Assembly (NCBI GenBank): GCA_023231475.1
Contig: JALJEE010000562.1
Location: 1-64,000 of the forward strand
Direction: 5' to 3'
Origin: Seison nebaliae
Taxonomy: Eukaryota
DNA: 64,000 nucleotides
In this document: positions 311 to 49,947 of the stretch, one piece after another
Numbering within the stretch: the stretch's first letter is position 1
How the letters are laid out: each line of letters begins with the position of its first letter
The notes under the pieces: model-generated
Seen by the model: only the letters and a program-made list of their open reading frames with translations
Database searches by the model: none
Told to the model about the DNA's origin: nothing
Program-made: the position numbers and the translations under genes

Positions 311-1317
311 CACATTTTTTTCTCATTAATTATCTTTTCCGTATACAAAGAAATAGGACCTATGTTACCCGAGTAATAATTTATACATTAAGTTCTTTTT
401 CTTTATATTGAACGATTGAAAAACGGAAACATAAATTGTTGAATGAATGGTTTGAAACAAGTCTTTCCATATCTTATGCGTTCGACCAAAAGACACTTTT
501 GTTTATAATTCACCATAATTGCTTTATATATTTATAAATCGAACTGTGAGACGTCCAAGTGGTCGGGGACGATAAGAAGGAAAAAAATATACTGGAATAT
601 AATAAATCAGTGTTTTTATTGGAATTAATTAAAAGATGATGGATTAATGAATATTTGTAAGGTCGCTTGTTTTGATGGAAGAAATTGGCATTGGTTGAAT
701 TGACTAGACCAATGAATAGTAGAAAAGGAATATAAAATCAATTGAGTTTGACGAAACAGTTACTAATATAAGAAGATGAATGGATTAAATAAAATAGACT
801 CACGGATGCACATAGTATATGGAAAGTGCTTAATATAAATAGGTAGAGGAATGAATTAAATTTTGTCGGTTTTTTTTTCTTCATAAATCATATTCACGAA
901 ATGGAAAGATGTAGAATTAATTGTTGAGAAAAGAAGATGTTTCAGAATGTAAGAATTTATCTTCGGTTAGTATAATAATTGGAGAAAGATTGAAGGAGAT
1001 TTGAATTGAATAAAAGAACATGTTTTTGAGCGATATCACCGGAAATCCTGATTGGAATAAAATCGATAAATTTATAAGTTTTAATATTACATTGGATGGA
1101 AGCACATTTTTCATTTCTTCTTTCATATACATAAGCTAATACTTTTATGGCACTATAAGAAATGAGGCAGAAAACTGAAAGGAAAGTATAAGCAGAATAA
1201 ATGAGAAAGATATGAAAATATTTACGTTCAATGACAAAGAAGTATATTTATTTGAGTTTTTTTTTATAACTATTGACATCACGACACAAAGGTGAGTAGG
1301 AGACATATAAGAATGGT

Positions 1318-3612
1318 TCACTAAACGAAAATTGAGAATTGCTCACAAAGACCAAGAAGAAATCAAAGAACTAACCGTCATACTTCGATTGGTGGTTTCA
1401 ATGGGAAGGAGAAATGACGCTACTGCGGCCAATAAACCAACACATCCGTATAAGGAGATAGCGAAATTAACTGATGTTCTGAGGAGAACCTATTGACAAA
1501 TGAATATTTTCAAAACAGAAATGTGAAAAAAAACTTGGGCTACGAATGGTGTTAAAATTGCTCCAACTCGAGCCATACCTGAGCAAACGCCTAATCCGAC
1601 AGCTCTTGTAGTTGTGGGATATACTTCTGGTGTGTAGACATATGCTACTTGGAAAGCACCGGAAACGAAGGCTCTAGCAACAAATATGAAGAATGTCATC
1701 AATTGTCTAAAAAGGGAAATGAAATGTCGATTTGAGAGGATTATGTGACGGAAATGAACCTTGATGTGCAGATATTGACTAGAAATGTGAATATGGAGAA
1801 CAAAAGAAGTTCCAATGCCATTGTCTTTTTTCGTCCGATATATTCGACAATGAAAACGGTAATGAATAGACCCGGAAATTCCGCTAATGTCGTCCACAGA
1901 ACATCAATATAATCTTGTTTCGTTAAACATTTCAAGTAACATTGTTCACTTTTCTCCGAAATTTTCGCTATTTTAAATCTTAGAAGAAATTTAGATGAAT
2001 TGAATGGAAGAAACCTTCACAAGTTGAACGCATTTCAAATAATTCAGTTGTCATTAATATGATTCCATAATAAGCGAATGCATTAGCGAACCACAAGAAC
2101 CATAAGAGCAATGTTGTTCTTCGATTTTCCGGTTGTAACAGATCGGAAATTTGTCCGCGTTGTTGGTTATGTCTTGGAGCAATTAACTGACCTACTGGTA
2201 ATGTGGCTTTGTTTTCATTAGCCGCCCGTTGCAATGTAGCTTGTGCTTTATCTTGCGCTCCAATGGCTAATAGGAATCGGGGCGATTCTGGTAACCAAAC
2301 GCAAAATAAGGCAAATAACAATTCAGGTAAAGCGGAGAGACCGAGAAGCCATCTCCAACCTAATGTTGGCATAACAGCTAATGCGAGAAGTACTTCGAAA
2401 CATGCTCCGATTGCCCAAAATACTTCGACGAGTATGACGCATCTAGCACGATGTCTCGCAGGAAGAAATTCAGCATATAATGTAACAGATTGGGGACAGC
2501 CTCCAATGCCAACACCCACTAATCCTCTTAAGATTAATACCCAGATTAATGTTGGAGCGAAAGCACTCAACAGACCGTAATAGAATGTGAAGAGAGTAAA
2601 TAGAACTAATTCCTGATATGATGAAGCATTAACGATCGAAATTTTTAAAAGAAGAAAATTTTAAACTGTGCGACGTCCATACTTGTCACATATCTTCCCC
2701 CAAAATGATGAGCTGATCATCATTCCACAAAATACACACTATTAAATTGAAGAAGTATTATTGGGAGAAAGAGAGAATGTGAATCAAACTGTAGTAATTG
2801 CTGCTTTCTGCCAATCGCCAGTCATCCATTCGCAACTGAGAGCAGGTCCTAAAATACTCAGAATCATCATTTCCATCGCATCCGCCATCTGATATTAAGA
2901 AAAGAGTTATCTCATATGAGTTGTTGTCAGTTGGAAATAGTAACCCATGCTAAACCAGTTAACAAAGAGAGTTTGACTTGAAACATTCCAAATCCAATAT
3001 GATCAACAGCTTGATCCACCGTATAACGTGCTGGCTCCGCCCGAGCAGATGTATTGTCTAAAAATTTCAAATTTTTTAATTTCAAATTCAATAATAGTAA
3101 TTCCAATTGGAAGGATTATAGATAAAATTATTTATGTGATTTCTACACTTTCGTCCTCATAATCAGTTGAAAATAATAGAAATTATTTTTTTCTAATAAA
3201 AATTGACCTGAAATAATTGTTGAGTTTCAGTGAATTAAGTAGAAACGAATGAATGAATGAATGAATGAATGAACTGAAGAATGAGAAAAAAGAATAAATA
3301 AACGGTGGGGAAATGCCTAAATACCTGTTGAATCTGGGGGAGGATCGGATCCGACTCGATTTATTCTCCTTCTAACATCTATTCTATCCGATTGTTATAT
3401 TGTTCTATTTGATATGACTATTTGAAATAGATGAATGAACCTGGAGCTGGAACTGGGTCATTGTCGTTGTCCCCTGTATTTTGGAAAGATCTATACGGAA
3501 CGTCATCATCAGCATTGCCACTGTTATTATTGGTGTTGGCAGTCATGCTATCTTGGATACCGGTCATCAAATTGTTCATTTGCCGCCGAACATCCTTAAT
3601 GAGATTACTCAT
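1318..3612 (-). CDS. SVOP: Synaptic vesicle 2-related protein (SVOP-like MFS transporter), 9-10 exons
   Basis: Spliced translation gives [86 protein letters not shown] and LPIET. Introns: 3379-3440, 3058-3324, 2889-2944, 2739-2789, 2613-2666, 1968-2014, 1707-1759, 1490-1534 and probably 1321-1375. If the last intron is not spliced, the stop is at 1343-1345. Confidence 0.93.
3247..3272. repeat. (GAAT)n microsatellite in an SVOP intron
   Basis: Direct tandem GAAT units. Confidence 0.85.
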
Positions 3613-5047
3613 TTTTAATGTTGCCGGCTAGCTGTACTCGCTCACCACCACTTGAAGACGATCAAATAAAAAGAATAATCTGATGAATGAAAGACGATGA
3701 AAACGAAAAAATGTTAGTTTGATATTCAATTTCGTTAAGAAATTCGTTTTAATTCATTTCAATTCTCTCATTTTGGGGAGAACCGTCGACAAATATTTTC
3801 ATTTTTTTTCTTTAATTAATTCTCTCGCCTCCTATTCTCTCATGTAATTCCCAATCATCAAATTGTTCCATGTTCCAATGGAAGAAACGAATGAATAGAT
3901 GGCAGACAATCTGAATTGATTTCAACGATTTCTAACAATAGAAATTCATCGGAACAAATTTTCATTTGGAAAGATGATTAGTTGAATTTTGCATGAGAAC
4001 AAATTTTAAATAAATTCAATATAATATCGATTTTATGTTTAAGTAATCTTGTGCTAGTCCGAACAGTCCGAAGTGACGAAGGATGTCTCTTTGAATCTCC
4101 AACTCTTTTACGGTGACTTGTTTCTTCAACCGATTCTCCAAAAAAAGCATAATCGGATGATGAGAGTGTGGATGTATATGACCAGGAATGAAATGTTGCT
4201 CATGATCCTCCCAAGTGGAGATAAAATTAAGGAAATAAGTGTAAGAAAGGAGGAATATAAATTTCTCGAGATATAGAAATCTATTCGTTTAATAATTTCA
4301 ATATAGTCTAGTAAAGCAATGACTCTTTGGGTCGCCCTCTTGTTCCGTGCGACATAAATTGAAATATATATTCCTCTTCAACCAAATGTATAACATGAAT
4401 ATACATTTATTTTTTTTAAAGAATATTTCGTTCCCTACAAATTTATATGTGACGATTGTTCATCATTAAATCTATGACAACTACAAGACATGAACTAAAA
4501 ATATCTTTAAAAATATTTTATAGTTTCTCTTCCAATACGTCGAGTAAATTCCCTTTTATTCTTTATAGGAAACAACATTTTCTATTTTAGGAGATATATT
4601 ATTCTATGTACGTAATTCTATGTATATCTGCTGTAGTCGAATGAATGAAATGTCTATGTGTCCCCACCGATATGTGTGGTACCCCCAATATAGTTATTCT
4701 CTTAAATAGCAGTAGGATGTGTAGAACAATTTTCTTTCTCCATTCACACACACTATTCACTTATCGTGTATTATATTCTTTCGTTTCGTCATCTTTACCA
4801 CTCCATGACGTAAAGAGATAGAGAATATTGAAGAATTTGCATGAAAATATTTGAAGAAGAAAAGAATTGACAATAGAAACATAAAAAGAAACGGAAAATT
4901 TATCATTTTAATTTCACTCTTTTCCAAAAAAAGAACCTCTGAAAGTTCTCCCTTGAAAAAATTGGAAGAAAAAACTCGGAAATTTATTCACTGATTGTAC
5001 TAATCAATTCGCACTCTACTCCCAATAACCACTACTTTCATATCGTT

Positions 5048-7199
5048 TTAAATTATCAGCTTTCGTCGATCTTCCTCCGATTTTTGCCGTTTCAATTCTA
5101 CTGACTCATTGACTTTCTGGATGATTTTCTGTTTATCTATTTTCCCGTTTCCAATCATTCTGGGCAATTCCTTCCAACATTCCATTACTGACGGTTGCAT
5201 GTATGATGGTAGTTGTTTAGCTAAGAACCTCTTAATTTTCAGTTTCACATAATTCGAATCTTCATTTTCTTCAGTTATGCTAAAAATTAAATGAAGTGAC
5301 TTATATCGATTATCGAATTTTGATTTAATCGGAACAACACAACATTCGTGAACATATTTAATTTTCTTTGTAGTCGTTTCTATTTCAGACAATTCAACAC
5401 GAAATCCATTCAATTTAATTTGTTCATCTTTTCTTCCATAAAATTCCCATAATCCATTCTCTAATTGACACACGTCACCAGTATCATAAGACCACAAGTT
5501 ACATAAGCCTTTCTTTAGCCACTCATTTTTTGTTTGGATGTTGTTGAAGAAATTTTTTGAATTCTTCACATATCCATTCGACACACAATGTCCACTAATT
5601 ATCAAAGTTTTTTCGTCAATTTCTCCATTTTTCAGAGTTAATAAATTTCCTGGTGCTCCAATTCCAATTGGCATATTCTTGTCATTTGGTAATTTCGATG
5701 GATGTTTGTAATTATACAACGTTCCTAATGATGTCGTTTCACATGGACCATAACCATTGATAATTTCTGCAGATGATGAATTCTCCAAAAATCTGTTACA
5801 AATCGATAGAACTGGTCGTTCGCCACCAATAAAAACCTGAGAAGAAACATGAGACGAAAGAGAATTAGAAAGAAATTATTTTTAAATAAAAATTCGATGA
5901 ATAATATTTTTAATTTACAATTTGTTAGTTCATAATTATAGAAGTTATTTGGGAGAATGATAAAATAGAGAAATTGAAAACTTTCTCTTTTTTTCGAAGA
6001 ATGGTGAGAAAGAAATGATGGGAGAGATGATGGAAAGAATTTGAGAAGAAAATAAAACTTTTGTTAATGTTGAGAGGTAGGGAAGGAAAGACTCAACAAG
6101 AATATTGAACATTCCTACGATACAAATGAGAACAGTAATTTCATATCGATTAATTCGTTCAGCGATATGTTGAGGTTGCAAAAGATGACGACTAGAATGA
6201 GAAGAAGAAAAGAATGAGATTAATTCGACCATATAAATGAAAGAGTGGAAGGGAAGTTGGCTTAATAAGAATATTAACGAACCGGTTGATAATTATGAGT
6301 TTAGCTCCATTGAGTAATGCACCGAACAATTGATAAGTGTATGCGTCGAATGAGAGTGCAGTGATTTGTAAAATATTGTCATTCTCTTTCAAATTAATAC
6401 AATTTTCAGATAAATTTCTCAGGATCAATCCTCGATGATGTAAGAGAATACTTTTAGGCTTACCAGTACTTCCCGAAGTGGACAATATTAGACAAGTTTC
6501 CAAAGATGACAAATTTCTTGTTAAGTTCAACAATTTCGTTCTTTCCTCTTCCAATTCGAATTCATCACCATCATCATGGTCATCGTTCTGGGGGAATAAT
6601 TGATTAAGTGGAAATATTCCAATTTCATAAGATAATCGCGCGAGCAATTTCTCTAGATATCTCTTTCGATTATTATTCTCGTCACAAACAATCGTCAAAT
6701 GGAAATGTTCATTGAAGTTTCCATAAATATTCTCGATAATCCATCTATTCCTATCAACCGGCAGACGATCATCAATATAATAAAATAAATGATTATTACA
6801 CATAACAGACAATAAGAAAACGAATGTTTCGATTGATCGCTCCCCACAGAACAAGAAGATTTTCCGTTTTCCCTCATTTTCATCATGTTCGATTTGTAGT
6901 TTGTTCATTCGATGAATACAATGTAAGATTTCGTGCTCCAATCCATCAAAAGTAAGTTGATTAATGATATGTCCCTCATTCCTCAATCTCTCCACATTCC
7001 AATCCTCAACGAGAAATAAACGATCGCGAAATTTGGGAATGATACGTCGAAAAATGAATTGGGCGAGATGGAACGACACTGATCGATGATCATTCCCTAT
7101 CTGATGTTCGAGTGGTTGATAGTGTAAATCTAATTTCCTCAGTTCTTCATAAACATCATTCCCATCAAACATTTTCTTCGATTTCTTCTCCTTCTTCAT
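5048..7199 (-). CDS. Stand-alone NRPS-type amino acid adenylation enzyme (ANL superfamily), about 612 aa, 3 exons
   Basis: Core motifs in order: STSGSTGKPK (A3), LSFDAY (A4), FIGGE, NGYGPCETT (A5), YDTGD (A7), GRKDEQIKLNGFRVELSEIE (A8), LPSYMQP (A9), NGKIDK (A10). Introns 6192-6282 and 5837-6058 restore one frame (917+133+789 nt). No carrier or condensation domain seen. Confidence 0.9.
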
Positions 7200-7524
7200 T
7201 ACATCTCCTAATGTCTCGGTAAGTGTTTGAGAATTATTTCATCTGTTCAACAACATTCAAATTCAATTTTCATTTACTATTTCAACAAACTAATTTTTCA
7301 ATTAAGGAAACATTTATAAAACTTAAAATCTTCTTTCTCATACTCACAAGACAACTAAATAACTAAACTTAAAAAAAATAAGAATTTTAGCTAGTTCTCT
7401 TTTTTTTCTGTTGATTTTTCCATGGAATTTATTCGATAAAAATAAAAAGTGAAAATTTTTTTTTTCCCCACTCCAAAAAAATCAAATCCCCACGGCGCAG
7501 ATTAAGAAAGATATTTGAATTGAT

Positions 7525-9097
7525 CTAGTTCTTTGTTATTCGATAAGCGTGAAGAAGATTTATATCAATAATAAAATTTGAAGTATTTTCCCACAGTCGT
7601 TTCTTATATTCACTTCCATCTGTCGATTCCAATTCGTAGAAGGTTGATAAATTATAGATCAATTGAGAACAGAGATACATTCTCGGATCGTCTTTGATTG
7701 CATTCTCCAGTAAATGAATACCATCTGCCAATCGATGCATATACAACAGAGTTGTCGCTTTATTTGTTAAGGACTATAGGAAATGATTTGAAATGGAAAT
7801 GGATGAATCAAAGAGAATAAACTTCAATTTTCAGTTTATCTGAAATCGTTTCACTTTCTAGAACTTTTTCGAAGTTGTCAAGAGCTTCCGAATAATTTTG
7901 TCGAACGAATTCGAGACAACCTCTAAATGAATTTCAATGAATCGAATCGAAAACATGAGATAAACATGTTAAAATTGTATAAGTCTGGAAATTGAGTTTT
8001 GTCGATTTCCTCAAAAATTTTCTGCGCTTCATTTGGAAGATTCATGGATAGAAGGAATCTTCCTAAAATTAATGTGACTGATTCGATTGAATATATTTCC
8101 ATTTTTTTAACTTCAATTATTAAATTGATCGCATCTTCGATCATCTGAAAAAGAAAGTTATTGTTAAAGTTAAAACGATAATAAATAAACTTCTTTCTCC
8201 ATATAAATATTCGCCAACAACAAACAAGTTCTCGCTTTCCGTTTCTTCCAACATTCTTTCTTAGACATGAATGAAATTAGAGAGAAAAAAATTGAAACCT
8301 TTCACAGATAAAAGTTCATTAAATTTCTTTTCGTTTTCACTCTCAATTTCAGTCTTCGATTGAGTGATGGATTCAATTGATCTTTCAATAACATTCAATA
8401 ATTTTGAACAGATATCGATCAATCGATAAAATTTCGTGATACTTCTCGCCATTTTACCTTTGTAAGAATTGGAGGAACGATATGCCGCTTCAATAGATAT
8501 CAATCGGAGATCATAAGGAATCATACAACCATTTGAATTGAGATATTGTTCTCCATAATGTCGATAATAGAAGAATGGACATTGGAATTCACCAAAACTT
8601 CTCAATTCCTGATCGATTTCATGATACATTCTCCTCTTCATCATTATCGATACGCGAATCAACCAAATTTGAAAGGAATAAGCAGTGAAAATGGGCGCCT
8701 CATATACTTCATGAGATGATTCCGTTGAGTCATGATGATGTGCGGATAAGATGGCGGTAGTCAGATTGAATGCTTTCCTCAACGCTCCACATTTTATTAA
8801 ATTTTGTAATTCGACTGTCGACATTTCTTTCTTGTCGTTTGAAGGCAAATGATTTATTCGATTTCGTTCATCAATTTCCATATCAATCGATTGATTTAAA
8901 TCATATCTCTTCCCATTAATCGTCAAATCATCAGTTAATTCCTTCTTGATGAGAATGGGACGAACAGAGGAAAATATCGATCTTCTCTTCTTTCCATTGC
9001 GGGTGGATGAATATCGATTTATTTCCAATTTATTTCCCGAATTTAAATAATCATTCAACTCTTTCGAAATACACCAACTGTCTTTACTGATTTCCAT
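7525..9097 (-). CDS. TRAPPC12: Trafficking protein particle complex subunit 12 (TTC15), TPR protein, 5 exons
   Basis: LQNLIKCGALRKAFNLT...SFQIWLIRVSIMMK...ELRSFGEFQCPFFYYRHY...GCMIPYDLRL and C-terminal YNLSTFYELES resemble TRAPPC12. Introns at about 8256-8298, 8145-8190, 7923-7965 and 7774-7822. Start codon uncertain. Confidence 0.82.
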
Positions 9098-9297
9098 TCG
9101 CTTCGTCAGTAAAATATCAGATGGTTATTAATTGGATGACAATTAATAAATGAGAATTGATCGAAAAATAATTTTTTTTAAAATTTTGAACAAAAACTTA
9201 AAGTTTGAAAATGTTCGAATTTCAATTTCTTTTTTATAATTTCAAACATTTTTCGTTGGAATTAAATTGGCGATCTATCGTAATTTTTCGGAATTCC

Positions 9298-9310
9298 GTT
9301 GTTAGGAAAC
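9298..9310. promoter_or_regulatory. RFX X-box-like motif in the divergent TRAPPC12/TCHP promoter
   Basis: GTTGTTAGGAAAC (reverse complement GTTTCCTAACAAC), about 150 bp upstream of the trichoplein ATG. Confidence 0.55.
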
Positions 9311-9463
9311 GGAGAAGAATGGAATAATTGTTCTTTAAAGAAATTAAAATAAATTTTTTCCAATTCCGTTCTTTCTCATCTGTGCATTTTCGTACAGTTG
9401 AATTATCAAGGGGGAAAAAACTTAAAGTTGTTGTTGGAATTCAATCTTTAACTTTCGTTAAAG

Positions 9464-11135
9464 ATGGCGTTTCCCACACTACCATCCTACCGAGAATTGT
9501 GTCATATACATTCATCTCATCAAGCACTTGCCAGAAAGCAAGATGTTTTAATAAGGAAAAAGTTTTTATTTCTGTATGAAATTCGTTTGAAATTTTAATG
9601 ATTGTTCAGAGAAGAATTGAAAGAGAATGCGAAATTCTTTCGAAAATCTAATAATATTTCCAGATTAAACGAACGATGGACATCTGATAATATATTTAAT
9701 TCGAGGTAATTTTTTCATTGACGATTATTGTTCATGATGATGTTAAAGTATTAATTCATATAATCGACAGTTTGTTGACGATAAAAAGAAAGAAAAGATT
9801 GAGGAAAGAAGATTAAAATTAACTGAATTGTACAGTGAAGAAATGAAGGAATATGAGGTTAACTTGAACAATGTTTATAATTGTGTAGAATATTTATTTG
9901 TTGTATTTGTTGTGTAGGCACAATTACTTACTGTTCCCGATGAATTACGTCCTCATCGATTGAAACATCGTGTGGAACAGATGAAGAGAATAAAAGAAGA
10001 AAAACGACAAATGGATGTGGAAGAGCGATTAGAACGAGCTAAACGAGAAGTTGATGCTGAATATCGTGCTAGACAACAATCAGATGAAAGGAAACGTTTG
10101 GTGAAAGAATGGAATGAACAATGTCGTTCCAGAGAACAAAATGAACAGAAGGAGAAAACAGTTGAAATGAATGAAGAGAAAAAATTGTTAGAAAAAGATC
10201 GAAAGTTGAAAGAAGAAGAAGATCGACAAAAGAAAGAAAAACATTTAAGAAAAAATGAAGAATTGAAGAGACAATTGGAAGACGAACGTTTTCGACAACG
10301 TGAAAGAGAAGAACGGAAAGTAATGTTTTTGAAAGAAGAAGCTAAACTGAGAGAAGAATCGAGACAATTAGAAGTACTGGAATCCCAACAGAAATTTGAG
10401 GAACAGCGTCGGAAACAAAGTGAATATGCTTCTCAATTGAAACGACATCATTTAGCACGACTGAGACGGAACGCTTTAGAAGTGGAAAGACAATTAGAAT
10501 CTGATTTGAGTTTCCTTCAACAATTATCCGATATGGAATTGAGAGAGAATGAACGATTGAGAGAGAAGAAGAAAAACGAACGTCAATTGTTAGTTCATGC
10601 GAGAGAAGTGCTCATTGCACAACGACATGAAGAGAAATTACGTTTAGCTGAAATTGATGCAATGCATCAACATGAGGCGGAAAAGGAATGGGAAAAACGG
10701 GAAGCAATATGGAATAAAGAACGTGAAGCACGTGAGAGATTATTGCAGAATGTTCTAATGGAAAGACAAGAACAAATTAACAATAAATTGAAATTGATAA
10801 ATGAGAATATCGGTCAATCATCATCATCATCATTAAATAATGAAGATCAGCAATTCGAAATGAATCAACAACAACAACAGCAACAACAACAATATTATTA
10901 TAATAATAATAATAAAATGAATAATAAGTATTATCATCAAAATAATAATATGAATAATAATAATAATAATAATTTGTCATTAGAGAAACGTGATTCATTT
11001 CATTCATATAGAAGTGATGCAGAAACAGAATCCTCATTCAAAAGTGCACGGCAGAATAAACATTTAGATATAAGCAATTTCTCATCAACATTGACTACTC
11101 CACGATATGGACGACGGAAAGTAGTTTGGGATTAA
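9464..11135 (+). CDS. TCHP: Trichoplein keratin filament-binding protein (TPH coiled-coil), 4 exons
   Basis: N-terminus MAFPTLPSY matches the trichoplein MALPTLPSY signature. Long E/R/K coiled-coil with EAEKEWEKREAIWNKEREARERLL. C-terminus PRYGRRKVVWD. Introns 9562-9609, 9706-9748 and 9858-9917. Poly-Q/N insert near the C-terminus. Confidence 0.88.
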
Positions 11136-11622
11136 CGTTGGATCAAAAGCTCCAATTCAAATGATAATCTCTCAATAGATTCTTTTTCAAATAACTTTTA
11201 TTTTTGATGTTTCATAAATTCTGTTTCACTCTTACTATTTTCATTACTTATAAATTTCTAATCAGATATTTCTTTCTTTAACCTTATAAAAACCTTATAC
11301 ACATTTCATTCTCTTTTATCGGAAAAGTTATCATTCGTCGTCTTTTCTTGATGATTCGTTCATGTATCTTCTTTCAAAAACATTCGTACATGTCGGCTGA
11401 TGTGATGTCTGATGGAATGATAATTTGTCAACGATAATATCGTCATTCCTTATCATAATTCCGTTATCTTATCTTCAATTTTCATAGAAATGTTGAATGA
11501 TTTGTTGGAACAGAAATCGAATAAAACAAAAACAACAACAGTAGCATCTTGAGTGAAAAATCGATTTTATACTGAGAAATTATAGGGAATTACAATAAAG
11601 ATAGATACTGATTTTATTCTCA

Positions 11623-12537
11623 ATGAAATTTCAATATTATCAATTAAAATTTTATTTATTCTATTCATTTATTTATTTGAATGAATTGATTGTGGGAAGG
11701 GGCACAAATCGAATTATTGGTGGTTCGATTGCCCGACCGAATTTACCATATTCGATTGTCATCTATCGAATATATCATTCACAAGGACTACCATCAATTA
11801 CAACGCCGATATGTTCCGGTAATTTAATTTCAACCCGATTGATACTTACCGCTCTCCATTGCGTCCTGTTGAAGGAGGAAGTGATAAATTTGGATGATTT
11901 GTTTGTGGTTGGCGGACAGCAAATTATGAATCGATTTCAATCGAATCAAATACAAATTCGATATATTCATCGAATAATTCCACATCCTCTCAAAAGTTTT
12001 CATTTTTTTCTCATTTCTATTCAAAAAAAAACAATTTCATCAGAGAAAAATAATTTAGATTATGATTTAGCCATTCTAGTAACAAAAAAGGAATTTCAAT
12101 TAAATCCTTTCGTCGATATCATTCAATTGTCGAGCATCAATGAATCACCAACAAATATTGAATGTTTCACTTCTGGATTTGGCGTATTCAATACTCATTT
12201 CTACTATCGTTATTCATCAATCATTCAACAGTTACAAGTGGAAATTGTCGACTATATTCATTGTAAGAATGAAATGAGATTAACAACATCCACCAATTTC
12301 TGTACGAGAACAACCACAAATAATATTGGGGAATGTAACGGAGATTCAGGAGGTGGTATCATTTGCAGGAAATTAAATGGCTATTCGACAAACTCCCAAC
12401 ACAAACTAGATAATTTTCAATTATATGGAATTGATTCTTGGCAATTAAGTTGTTTGAAAAATAAAACATTTACTGTTTATCAAAGTGTAGCAGCTAATCG
12501 ACTTTGGATTGATGGAATGATAGGAAATTTCAATTAA
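11623..12537 (+). CDS. Secreted S1 (chymotrypsin-fold) serine protease
   Basis: Hydrophobic leader, activation site R|IIGG, catalytic TALHC, DLAIL and GDSGG. Probable in-frame 48-nt intron at 11996-12043. Confidence 0.88.
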   Translation: MKFQYYQLKFYLFYSFIYLNELIVGRGTNRIIGGSIARPNLPYSIVIYRIYHSQGLPSITTPICSGNLISTRLILTALHCVLLKEEVINLDDLFVVGGQQIMNRFQSNQIQIRYIHRIIPHPLKSFHFFLISIQKKTISSEKNNLDYDLAILVTKKEFQLNPFVDIIQLSSINESPTNIECFTSGFGVFNTHFYYRYSSIIQQLQVEIVDYIHCKNEMRLTTSTNFCTRTTTNNIGECNGDSGGGIICRKLNGYSTNSQHKLDNFQLYGIDSWQLSCLKNKTFTVYQSVAANRLWIDGMIGNFN

Positions 12538-45763: not shown

Positions 45764-46732
45764 CAAATGTTTGATTGATTGTTCGAATAAATTTCATAAT
45801 CTTAGAATAGAATCTTCTTCATCGTCATCATCGTCATCGATATCATCTCTAACGAGAATCGACAAGATCCTTAAATTAAATTAACCGAAATTGTTATTTA
45901 AAGAATTATTTAATCAAAACCATCTTCCATTTTTCTTCCTTTTTTTCTTCTTCTTTTAACACAATTTCAATTTATCGATTTTTTTCCGTTCGGCTTTAAT
46001 CGATAATTGATCCTCATCATACTTCATTGTTACATATCATTACGCTCATTTAACTATTAGAGAATTTGGGGAATTCGTTTGAACGGATTCACCATTTATT
46101 TGTATAAATGAAATCAATATTCTATTCAACCGACCCATTAATGCCATTGTTGAATTTTATCGATATATATATATATATTATTTCTCCTCGTTAATTATTT
46201 CTGTAAACGAATTTCAATTTCAAATTTCCTTTTGTAAATCTTTCAATCTCATATGACTCGTCTTTCAATTATCATCAATATTAATATTGGGAAAAATCAA
46301 AATATTGAATAGTTCTCTCCATCTTCACAGTTTCACTCTATAAACAACAACAACAATAACCACCACCACAACAACAACAAAAACAACAACAACAACAATA
46401 ACAGCCTTCCATAATAAGAGAATTAAATATTAACAGAACTGAATTATAATAAATTTAAATTAATTTCAATTATAATCATTAATTTCAGACATTTCCTTCA
46501 CTAAATTATTAAAATCATTTATATATTGAAATTAATCAAGAATTTTATTTCAGTTCTTCTTTCGGATAATTTCTGAGAAAATTTGAAAAAAATAATTTCT
46601 CATCTTACTTCCTCATTCCATCAATGAAAAATCGTTGTCAATCCAATTGATTTTGCCATCCTTTTTAATAATGTTGAATTGTTGAAAAGTGAAATAAGTG
46701 ATTGGAAAAGATATTCGATTTTTTCGTACGAG

Positions 46733-49700
46733 ATGCAATTCTTTCCTCCTCAAAAAGAAAATAATATTGGTAGTAGTGGGGAGAATGTGCGACATAGTAT
46801 GTTCCGACCCGAATTTATCGATCGTTTACAAAATGAGATAATTTTGGAAGATGCTGTCGAACGAAGAGATCAAGTAGACGAAGCACGACCTGTCATCTCA
46901 ACTTCTCGATGTTTCAAGATCGTCTATTATACAATCCTTCCTTTATGTCTCATCTTGTGTACGGCCGTGCCAATTGTCATTTATCAAGTTCGTCAGAATA
47001 ATTTAGGGAATTATCCATCCACCAAAAACAATGACATTGATACGTTCGTTGAGAAAGGATATTATACTAAAATCAATCATAAGCCAGTGACATATATCGA
47101 ATATGTAACTAGACCACGTTTCTTAAGTAAATTCCGTAATATGGTACCGAGAAATTATGAATTTTATCATTTGGAAAATAATTTCAACAATTCCATTTCT
47201 CCATGTGACAATTTCTACATTCATACTTGCGGTAATTGGCAACACAACAATCGATTGAGATCAGTCCAAAAACAGAAATATGTTGATGAAATAACAATAT
47301 TGAATTTGCATATGAATTCAGAATTGAAGAAAGAGTTGAGTAAACTTTTCAGTTCAGCGAAATCTTTTAACGATTCTGGTGCACAGATCCTTTATAATAT
47401 CTTTTATTCTTGTTTACATGAAGCGGAAGATGTCGGTCAATTAAAACGATTGATATTTGATCGTGAGAAGAAAGATATTCGATTTGCCACAAAATTTTAT
47501 GATCGACCTATTAATGAGAAAATAGATGAAAATCTTCAACAATTTCATTTGAACGTCACTGACAAGAACGAGAATGATATGATGTCTGAAGAGATCGACA
47601 TAAATTATGTTATGGGAAAATTGATTAAGAATCGTCATCAAATTTTCTTCCGTTTACGCTCGTTCTCATTACCTCACAATCTCTCCATTTTCTACATTTC
47701 TCATCGACAACTACAACGAATTCAACGAATGTCTTTATTGAACAAGAATCTTTTCGGAGATAATAATCAATATAAAAAATTTATGAGAATTCTTCTCATT
47801 TATTCGTTCGAGAAGATCTTCCAACAATCCTACTCTCACCAAATGATTCATCGAATCATTGACGATATTATTGAGATTGATCATTTCTATGTGAACTGGT
47901 TGACGATTTCGGAAAATTATCGAAATATTTCTCATAATCAACGGTTCGATTTGTTATTGAAGTGAACAGTAAAAATTATTTTTCTTAGAACTGAGAATTT
48001 TCGAAGAAATATCATGAAACGATTAGTGAAACAAGAGAAGAACGATGAATCAAGATTATCATATTTAATGATGAATGTTAGTTGAATTGAATTAAGAAAT
48101 AAGAAATTATCGAAATTGTCTAGTTAAATGTAGAAGAGAATTTCAATTCTGTTCAATTCTCACCAGTTGCTGATTTACCCAAAAACGAATTGTTCGATTG
48201 GGAAGAAATATTGAAAAATTTATTTCCGACAAAAAACATTTCCGAATTGATTGTTCCAATTTTTATTTGAATATCAGACAATTTAATTTAAACGCAGACG
48301 ATTAAAGAGAATTTCGATGAAATGAAACTTCTAATGAATGAAATGAAAAGACATTTCCATCGGTATCAGATATTCAATTATTTACTCTATGTTCTCATCG
48401 AATCCCAAATCTCATTGTTCTCCGATAAATGGCGTAAAAGATTGATGTTTGTAGCACCGAAAGCTTATCGGAAATATGGTGAATCGATTTTCATGTCAAG
48501 AGAAGAGTATTCTTTCTAATTTCAGCAATTCGGTTAATTTAGTCTTTTAAACTAGGTTCTGCTACGTTTACATACGACAACGAACACCTGAACTGATAAT
48601 CAATTTTTATATTTCGAGAATTTCACAATCAACTAAATATTATGAACAATTCCGATTATTTATCGAAATTTTTCATCAAATTAAAAAGTCAGCTATTGTA
48701 TGGGTAGATGGTCTTCCATTGTCGTACGAGACAAAATCGATCCGTTTTACTTTCAATCTTCTTCATCATTTCGTCGAATTCTTAATGATATCAATATCAT
48801 CATACGAATTTAGTTGGCGACCGATTACAAACTGTCACATTACAACTCGGTTTTCCTAATCATCTCATGAAATTCACAAACAAAATTCATGTGGATGATG
48901 AGACTGTTGTCAGGAATTTCGGGAAGTTCATGTTTATTAAACGGAAATTTCCATTTTACAGTTATCATTTGTTATTGACGATGAATTTCATATTATTCTA
49001 TGTTTTTATCAAGAATTTATCGAGAGTATCAATGAAATAAATTTAAAAAATTTATGGAACCGATCTCCAATTGATTGGCATATTGACTCTTATACGGATG
49101 ATCCGTTCTTGGTAGAAGCAGCTTATTTTCCGGTGGATCATCGGCTCAGAGTTTTTTATATTTATCCATCCATTTACATCCATTTTATGATTTTTTTCCT
49201 GCAGTTATATGGTGGTCTTATCATTTCATTAATGCCAATGAGTCAGAAAATTGACAGGATCTATTTACTTGGATTTGTTATTAATACGATTGCTCATGAA
49301 ATCAGGTTTAAACAATTTTGAACAATTTCTCATGGAAATTAAACGTTTAGCCATTCGATCGATTTGTCGAAAGGTTCTTCATTTCGCATGTCCATTGCCA
49401 ATTCTTCCGACTTACAAAAATATGATGAATATGTCGATTGTATTGGAAGTTAAAATTTGTAGAAAGAAATTGAATAAAATTGACTTAAATAAAAACAGAA
49501 TTATATAACAAGAAAGAAGGAAAGGAACGAATGGTAATTGAACAGGAAGATATCGCCGATGTGTTCGCCGTTCGATTAAGCAGCATATTAATTAAACGAA
49601 TAATTGATGAGTTTCTTCTTATCTCCTCCTTCAACAACATGTCAACGATCCATATTTCCATTAGAAAAATTCATGGGGACAGTTATGTTAATGAATATTC

Positions 49701-49947
49701 GTTGGGAAATATTTTGTTTTTGAACGTTAAGAGCATAAATGAAAACACTCTGCGGAAAGTCAAACAAAAATATTATAAAGGTCAAGTTATGAAATATTGT
49801 GCTAGAAATAGAAAGAACAAATTGTTAGTTCCTTTTGGTCTCTATTCATCCAATGCCCAGAGATCGACAATTCCATTTTATAATTTAAGAGAATTTCACT
49901 CAATATTTAACTGCCACTCTTCAAATTCCATTTGTCATATTAGTTAA
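46733..49947 (+). CDS. Neprilysin-like M13 zinc metallopeptidase, type II membrane protein, about 11-12 exons
   Basis: N-terminal TM helix, SPCDNFYIHTCGNW, YSCL, LGFP, AHEIS|H (HExxH completed only by splicing 49306-49350), EDIAD and EFHSIFNC. Other introns: 47944-47988, 48077-48123, 48253-48297, 48507-48555, 48744-48813, about 48906-48961, 49151-49204, 49449-49498, 49611-49664 and possibly 49687-49731. Start is the first in-frame ATG. Confidence 0.88.

Follow-up and report, generated by a model that had tools for sequence, protein, structure and literature searches.

What is a lone adenylation (A) domain of the nonribosomal peptide synthetase (NRPS) type doing in an animal genome, and where did it come from? 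The question is raised by a gene of Seison nebaliae, a tiny marine seisonid rotifer, located at 7199–5048 on the minus strand of a 64-kb stretch of genomic DNA (the window), with three exons encoding 612 residues. Three minus-strand reading-frame pieces match the AMP-binding family in order. Joining them at 6283/6191 and 6059/5836 gives 612 codons, and from the second Met onward the joined pieces are exactly P0001, the NCBI model hypothetical protein SNEBB_006317 of 603 residues. The gene is arranged as follows.

7199–6283, minus strand: exon 1, from the first ATG, 9 codons ahead of the NCBI start; N-terminal core with degenerate A1/A2, then A3 and A4.
6282–6192, minus strand: predicted intron 1, 91 nt, GTTCG..TTCTAG, phase 2.
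6191–6059, minus strand: exon 2, 133 nt, carrying pocket position 278 (Ile).
6058–5837, minus strand: predicted intron 2, 222 nt, GTTTT..TCTCAG, phase 0.
5836–5048, minus strand: exon 3, with A5–A10, the small C-terminal subdomain, the terminal helix and the stop codon.
7200–7524, no strand: gap of 325 bp to the stop (7525) of the upstream animal gene; no space for a condensation domain.
3613–5047, no strand: gap of 1.4 kb to the point where the downstream transporter gene presumably starts; searches for a carrier domain here were negative.

Only one of the 24 junction placements that reproduce SNEBB_006317 has GT..AG at both introns, and both of its donors begin with GTT. The two host-style GTT introns proposed in the sequence-only reading are thereby upheld as predicted introns, and the stop at 7525 bears out its statement that about 325 bp upstream is too little for a condensation domain. 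GTT donors occur in all nine introns inspected (window 1767–8305, minus strand), two of them in this gene and seven, counted by eye, in the neighbours (six in the downstream gene, one in the upstream gene). This suggests that the 5′ splice-site consensus of Seison nebaliae is shifted to GTT from the usual GTA/GTG.

The same reading had named the neighbours as TRAPPC12 and SVOP. The downstream gene matches SLC22/SV2 transporters, and we take it to be SVOP; the upstream gene has only a weak TPR match, and its identity as TRAPPC12 is our presumption. On the plus strand lie a long coiled-coil frame with Gln/Asn runs and without a match in Pfam, lying divergent to the upstream TPR-type gene (9918–11135), a trypsin-like serine protease frame with an IIGG start and a GDSGG motif (11605–12537, family assigned by eye), and a multi-exon gene that by eye looks like an M13 (neprilysin-like) peptidase (46628–49947).

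The A-domain gene is real, host-integrated, divergent, and single copy without a close relative. Single contigs of DNA runs X2 and X3, which are one sample and possibly the source of this DNA, span 1200–9400 at flat depth and include the gene and both neighbours. Contigs of run X1, from another study and probably also DNA, cover the gene at a depth similar to that of the neighbours. No differences between the run contigs and the gene were seen, with matching at 95% likeness. The GC3 of the gene is 0.315, and that of eight other window genes is 0.23–0.34. Both linkage to host genes and predicted introns are present.

The AlphaFold model, built on an 82-row alignment, gives one complete domain with a mean pLDDT of 87.8, loose in the first 30 residues and closed by a terminal helix. 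The predicted fold is the two-subdomain ANL fold, nearest to NRPS A domains. With this model as query, all 50 structural matches listed are NRPS-type A domains (Z 37–40). Pfam finds AMP-binding and AMP-binding_C in the protein and nothing else. Motifs A3, A4, A5, A7, A8, A9 and A10 are present, whereas A1, A2 and the start of A6 are in place but degenerate. The earlier claim of a complete A domain with motifs A3–A10 therefore stands except at the start of A6. The motif alignment places the main elements as follows.

6450–6491, minus strand: A3 phosphate loop, LILSTSGSTGKPKS.
6339–6350, minus strand: A4, FDAY, with the Asp235 and Ala236 equivalents.
5738–5758, minus strand: A5, NGYGPCE; the pocket loop after it has full (alpha-type) length.
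5474–5488, minus strand: A7, YDTGD.
5378–5437, minus strand: A8 hinge region, GRxD and then conserved Lys, Gly, Arg and Glu.
5132–5149, minus strand: A10, NGKIDK, with the catalytic Lys517 equivalent.

Of the 47 near-invariant columns, each with a conservation of 90% or more across 1497 A domains, the Seison protein retains 38, every catalytic one included. As few are retained in just 19 of the 1497 domains; P0060, an acyl-CoA-ligase-like protein, retains a similar share, 0.81. TIGR01733 scores 200 bits, below its curated cut-off of 317.4, yet it is the top of 81 NCBIfam families. On these sequence comparisons the protein is classed as divergent A-domain-like.

The pocket code is DAYIFGGSLK with Asp235 retained, and the motif alignment reproduces the code that had been read by eye. 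Alpha-amino acids are oriented by Asp235 and Lys517 (PMC11355689, PMC11253843), while bacterial A domains for beta-amino acids have a shorter pocket loop and bulkier residues at 236 and 301 (PMC11253843). The Seison protein has Ala236, Gly301 and a loop of normal length, and so lacks the beta-amino-acid features, as these are defined in bacterial domains. The microbial-type, alpha-amino-acid pocket suggested earlier is supported by Asp235, the small Ala236 and Gly301 and the alpha-type loop length.

Which amino acid would enter this pocket is predicted less sharply. Among 1152 domains scored, a pool enriched in Val-type modules because the collecting queries were seeded with such modules, nearly all of the 39 best-scoring have DAFWLGGTFK- or DGFFLGVVYK-type codes, which are presumably Val and Ile codes. 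These two classes average 120–147 bits, against 79–113 for the other common module classes and 121–131 for DltA-like proteins, and the top single domains (176 and 171 bits) belong to multimodular NRPS. The best agreement of DAYIFGGSLK with any known code in the 1152 domains is at most 6 of 10 positions. In a per-column profile test the mixed 'other' modules scored above the Val/Ile modules (248 and 214), the HMMs gave 231 versus 241, and three of the ten Val/Ile-diagnostic columns are retained. The substrate prediction, an L-alpha-amino acid that is aliphatic and resembles valine, leucine or isoleucine, is thus of moderate strength. Val/Ile modules of AusA, LgrA, SrfA-C, GrsA and cyanobacterial/Firmicute NRPS share the fold, motifs and code pattern of the Seison protein and supply its top single-domain scores, but the Seison protein is without C, T, TE or R domain and its A2 and A6 are degenerate.

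The partners of such a domain were sought throughout the window. A carrier-domain HMM built from 180 seeds, which gave 60 and 41 bits to two free carriers of bacteria, found none in 2848 six-frame fragments of the window (best E 0.4) and no downstream carrier exon in 210 hypothetical splice joins (best 0.8 bits), in agreement with the earlier statement that no carrier domain lies downstream. With 185 relatives as queries, many of them multi-domain NRPS, tblastn against the window returned nothing beyond the gene (best E 0.058). Neither end of the protein holds a condensation-linker or carrier remnant that could be found, and no fused C, T, TE or R domain was detected. No free carrier gene adjoins the gene in the 64 kb, no PPTase gene was seen, a halogenase query had no match in the window, and Rfam had none in 3500–7600.

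The 1.4-kb gap before the transporter gene also contains a 90-codon open frame on the minus strand (4288–4019) with a coding-like GC1 of 0.46; two more minus frames and one plus frame are likewise open there. Its predicted structure is a low-confidence helical model. As a candidate carrier exon it was rejected, since Pfam, NCBIfam, the carrier HMM, splice joins, Atlas, PDB, Foldseek and Rfam were all negative.

The listed relatives point toward bacteria. Three word-seeded searches gave 305 relatives, mostly 25–36% identical. By our count by eye, 101 of them carry an organism name, all prokaryotic, and 204 carry none; no named eukaryote is among the 305. Ten giant NRPS relatives were looked up, and names were available for five, with bacteria in three and a eukaryote in none. 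Among 1.84 billion representatives no single-domain relative above 466 bits was found, in a listing filled by giant NRPS through summed scores. Atlas matches are bacterial AMP-binding clusters only, and a metagenome scan with the Seison protein found no relative in 181 stretches.

Four trees were built, and no animal, fungal, bdelloid, ebony or AASDH domain is in them. The first held 185 of 342 domains and the second 61 chosen from 1044 near-complete domains; from the third and fourth, long and redundant rows were dropped (34 and 35 rows), and from the fourth DltA as well. The Seison protein has an end branch of 2.4–3.5. It was placed near DltA or the outgroups in the first three trees, at the base in the second and beside DltA in the third. 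In the fourth, without DltA and the long rows, it joins a family of stand-alone domains at 93/91, not starred, the stand-alone rows having been chosen partly as best matches. A grouping with unrelated module classes survives the AU test (p 0.36). Long branches are general in Seison (PMC8351084).

An origin from DltA was considered and set aside. S. aureus DltA is the best PDB match of exon 3, Foldseek places B. subtilis DltA first, and DltA and AlmE resemble the proposed Seison enzyme in being stand-alone and loading a carrier in trans. However, the protein falls far below the DltA cut-offs (NF003417, 181.6 versus 476; TIGR01734, 175.5 versus 559.85), and the DltA profile, from a narrow and mostly clostridial sample, scored lowest. 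The DltA pocket has Leu at 236 and Cys at 301 (PMC11253843) where Seison has Ala and Gly, no dlt genes lie nearby, and the join in the tree was flagged as long branches meeting.

Horizontal acquisition from bacteria is likely. We go no further because, while every named relative is prokaryotic, animal, fungal and bdelloid sequences stand outside the trees and the branch is very long. Of the earlier proposal of horizontal acquisition, the prokaryotic affinity holds, but the trees do not fix a donor.

The stand-alone family is the closest bacterial counterpart in architecture. P0068, the best match of one search, and P0070, P0071 and P0077 are stand-alone domains of about 500 residues among the top eleven of that search. 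Family members are the five top scorers of 11 stand-alone candidates. Five loci of the family are present among 159 fetched; a free carrier adjoins in all five and a chlorinating enzyme in four, and the fifth locus, without the chlorinating enzyme, ends at a contig edge.

The four complete cassettes, each with a stand-alone Val/Leu-type A domain, a free carrier and a chlorinating enzyme (TIGR01762), are L057:85–5160, L001:5180–8705, L081 and L083. They come from MAGs labelled Coxiellaceae and Alteromonadaceae and from metagenome contigs. L057 also has a glyoxalase-fold gene and an aminotransferase, and L001 an alpha/beta hydrolase. Free-standing A domains load separate carriers, and barbamide BarA/BarB/BarD is an example of a free-standing A domain with a carrier and a chlorinating enzyme.

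The A domains of these type II loci, like CytC1 and Thr1, have in common with the Seison protein a single domain and an alpha-amino-acid pocket. The stand-alone family and Seison share Gly at 301 and 322 and similar A4 and A5, at 30–34% identity. In contrast to the type II loci, the Seison gene has an animal host, two introns, about 100 more residues and no carrier or halogenase gene nearby, and its pocket is changed at 239, 278, 299, 330 and 331. Descent from the family is not established.

Animal NRPS genes are already known, whereas a lone-A-domain architecture in the seisonid lineage is absent from the literature searched. Ebony, the schistosome and planarian NRPS, ACSF4/AASDH and mollusc FmtATR are, like the Seison protein, animal-encoded NRPS-like adenylation enzymes. 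AASDH and the schistosome NRPS carry a thiolation domain and a further catalytic domain. So do ebony, planarian NRPS and FmtATR in the reports available (PMC10510592, PMC11214079, PMC11869996), as the sequence-only reading had said of the thiolation domains of animal NRPS-like enzymes; both kinds of domain are absent from the Seison protein. C. elegans PKAL-1 (ACS-9) offers an animal precedent, an adenylating enzyme acting in trans to load a carrier domain, but it is acyl-CoA-synthetase-like and uses a polyketide substrate, and is not an amino-acid A domain (PMC8363725). The bdelloid NRPS/PKS genes share with the Seison gene the presence of bacterial-type NRPS parts in a rotifer genome. They have A, T and C domains and subtelomeric enrichment (PMC11258130), whereas the Seison gene has one domain amid core animal genes. 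The bdelloid study required A, T and C, reported 60 and 36 models, and does not contain Seison in its accessible text (PMC11258130). In a survey covering 1059 animal genomes, the available text and supplement contain no mention of Seison (PMC10531068), and terms for horizontal transfer or peptide synthetases do not occur in the accessible main text of two Seison genome papers (PMC8351084, PMC12256650). Among the papers listed by the literature searches, none deals with this gene, with NRPS in Seison or with the transfer of genes into it. By its sequence features, the Seison protein would not be counted as DltA, as ebony/ACSF4 or as a bdelloid three-domain NRPS, and it resembles a bacterial type II A domain.

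The explanation that we favour, with a confidence somewhat short of even, is a horizontally acquired free-standing A domain that would act in trans and load a carrier with an aliphatic L-amino acid. After a long-ago transfer from a bacterium, the gene would have gained two introns of host type and drifted toward the base composition of the host. The enzyme would adenylate an aliphatic L-amino acid with ATP by means of A3, Asp235, A5, A7 and the A10 lysine. The GRxD hinge, at which A domains rotate for thioester formation on the pantetheine thiol (PMC10510592, PMC11253843), would then turn and place the amino acid on the thiol of a separately encoded carrier, with CoA or pantetheine as possible stand-ins. 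The tethered amino acid would be used by further enzymes, leading to a small metabolite. The lone state may be inherited, the donor being free-standing and of the 'A domain + carrier + chlorinating enzyme' type, and not be due to truncation.

The sequence-only reading had put a carrier-free ligase first and an enzyme acting in trans second. The evidence appears to lean the other way, toward the trans reading, since nothing is lost from the A8 hinge region and free carriers adjoin the genes of the best-scoring stand-alone family. A carrier-free amide ligase, the main rival, is possible but unlikely. The same bacterial-type A domain would form the aminoacyl-adenylate, and an amine, amino acid or cysteine would attack it to give an amide or dipeptide. 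The absence of a carrier from the 64 kb would fit such an enzyme, a single transferred gene would then need no partner, and A2 and A6 have drifted. The excised TycA A domain makes amides from amines (PMC5811625), but it does so in vitro and as a truncated enzyme. Mitochondrial malonyl-CoA-ACP transacylase is entered as missing from Seison and from the two acanthocephalans, and as present in all listed monogononts and bdelloids (PMC12256650), which hints that carrier biochemistry is reduced in Seison. Against the ligase, the hinge region is fully kept, and the family with the best score among stand-alone domains lies beside free carriers.

Inheritance rather than separate transfer is rather improbable. 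The gene would then be the A domain of an animal NRPS-like enzyme (AASDH/ACSF4, ebony or an A-T-R reductase), or of an NRPS acquired by a bdelloid/seisonid/acanthocephalan ancestor, with the other domains lost or split. Bdelloids carry 36–60 three-domain NRPS/PKS models (PMC11258130), bdelloids and Seisonidea are grouped in Hemirotifera (PMC12256650), and heavy gene loss and fast evolution are reported in Seison (PMC8351084, PMC12256650). However, beta-alanine is the substrate of ebony and ACSF4 (PMC10531068, PMC11253843), and the pocket here is alpha-type. No linker or carrier remnant was found at the protein ends, a eukaryote is named for 0 of the 305 relatives, no single-domain relative exceeded 466 bits among the 1.84 billion representatives, and the bdelloid screen, in its accessible text, found none in Brachionus or Pomphorhynchus (PMC11258130).

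We give little credence to the wider proposal that Seison took up a whole cassette of A domain, free carrier and chlorinating enzyme, whose parts were scattered as intron-bearing genes and would form a type II pathway modifying or halogenating an aliphatic amino acid. Slightly less credible still is a decaying or non-catalytic copy, retained as a binding protein or heading for loss. The loss of nine of the 47 near-invariant columns, with as few kept in only 19 of the 1497 domains, and the score under the TIGR01733 cut-off would agree with decay. Yet the 612-codon frame is unbroken over three exons and gives a confident fold, about 70% divergence elsewhere has left all catalytic residues in place, and P0060 retains a similar share of the columns.

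Bacterial contamination or a mis-join, or a gene running on into an unseen carrier exon, is very improbable: the unfiltered genome assembly held bacterial BUSCO genes (PMC8351084) and the open frame at 4288–4019 is unexplained, but contigs of X2 and X3 run through the gene from one animal neighbour to the other at flat depth, a second study covers the gene at similar depth, the two predicted introns are of host type and GC3 is that of the host, and none of Pfam, NCBIfam, the carrier HMM, Atlas, PDB and Foldseek matches the open frame.

If the favoured reading, transfer and loading in trans, is true, bacterial-type biosynthetic genes would be extended from bdelloids to Seisonidea, a lineage marked by gene loss. 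The question is then raised of whether this was an independent transfer or is the relic of a shared ancestral acquisition. A single protein of about 70 kDa would show how an animal uses an A domain without an assembly line. If the scattered cassette is true, it would amount to an animal-encoded free-standing amino-acid adenylation pathway in a gene-losing lineage. The animal surveys, as far as their available text shows, needed A, T and C together or used antiSMASH without Seison (PMC11258130, PMC10531068). A lone amino-acid A domain would escape such surveys, and animals may therefore hold more of them.
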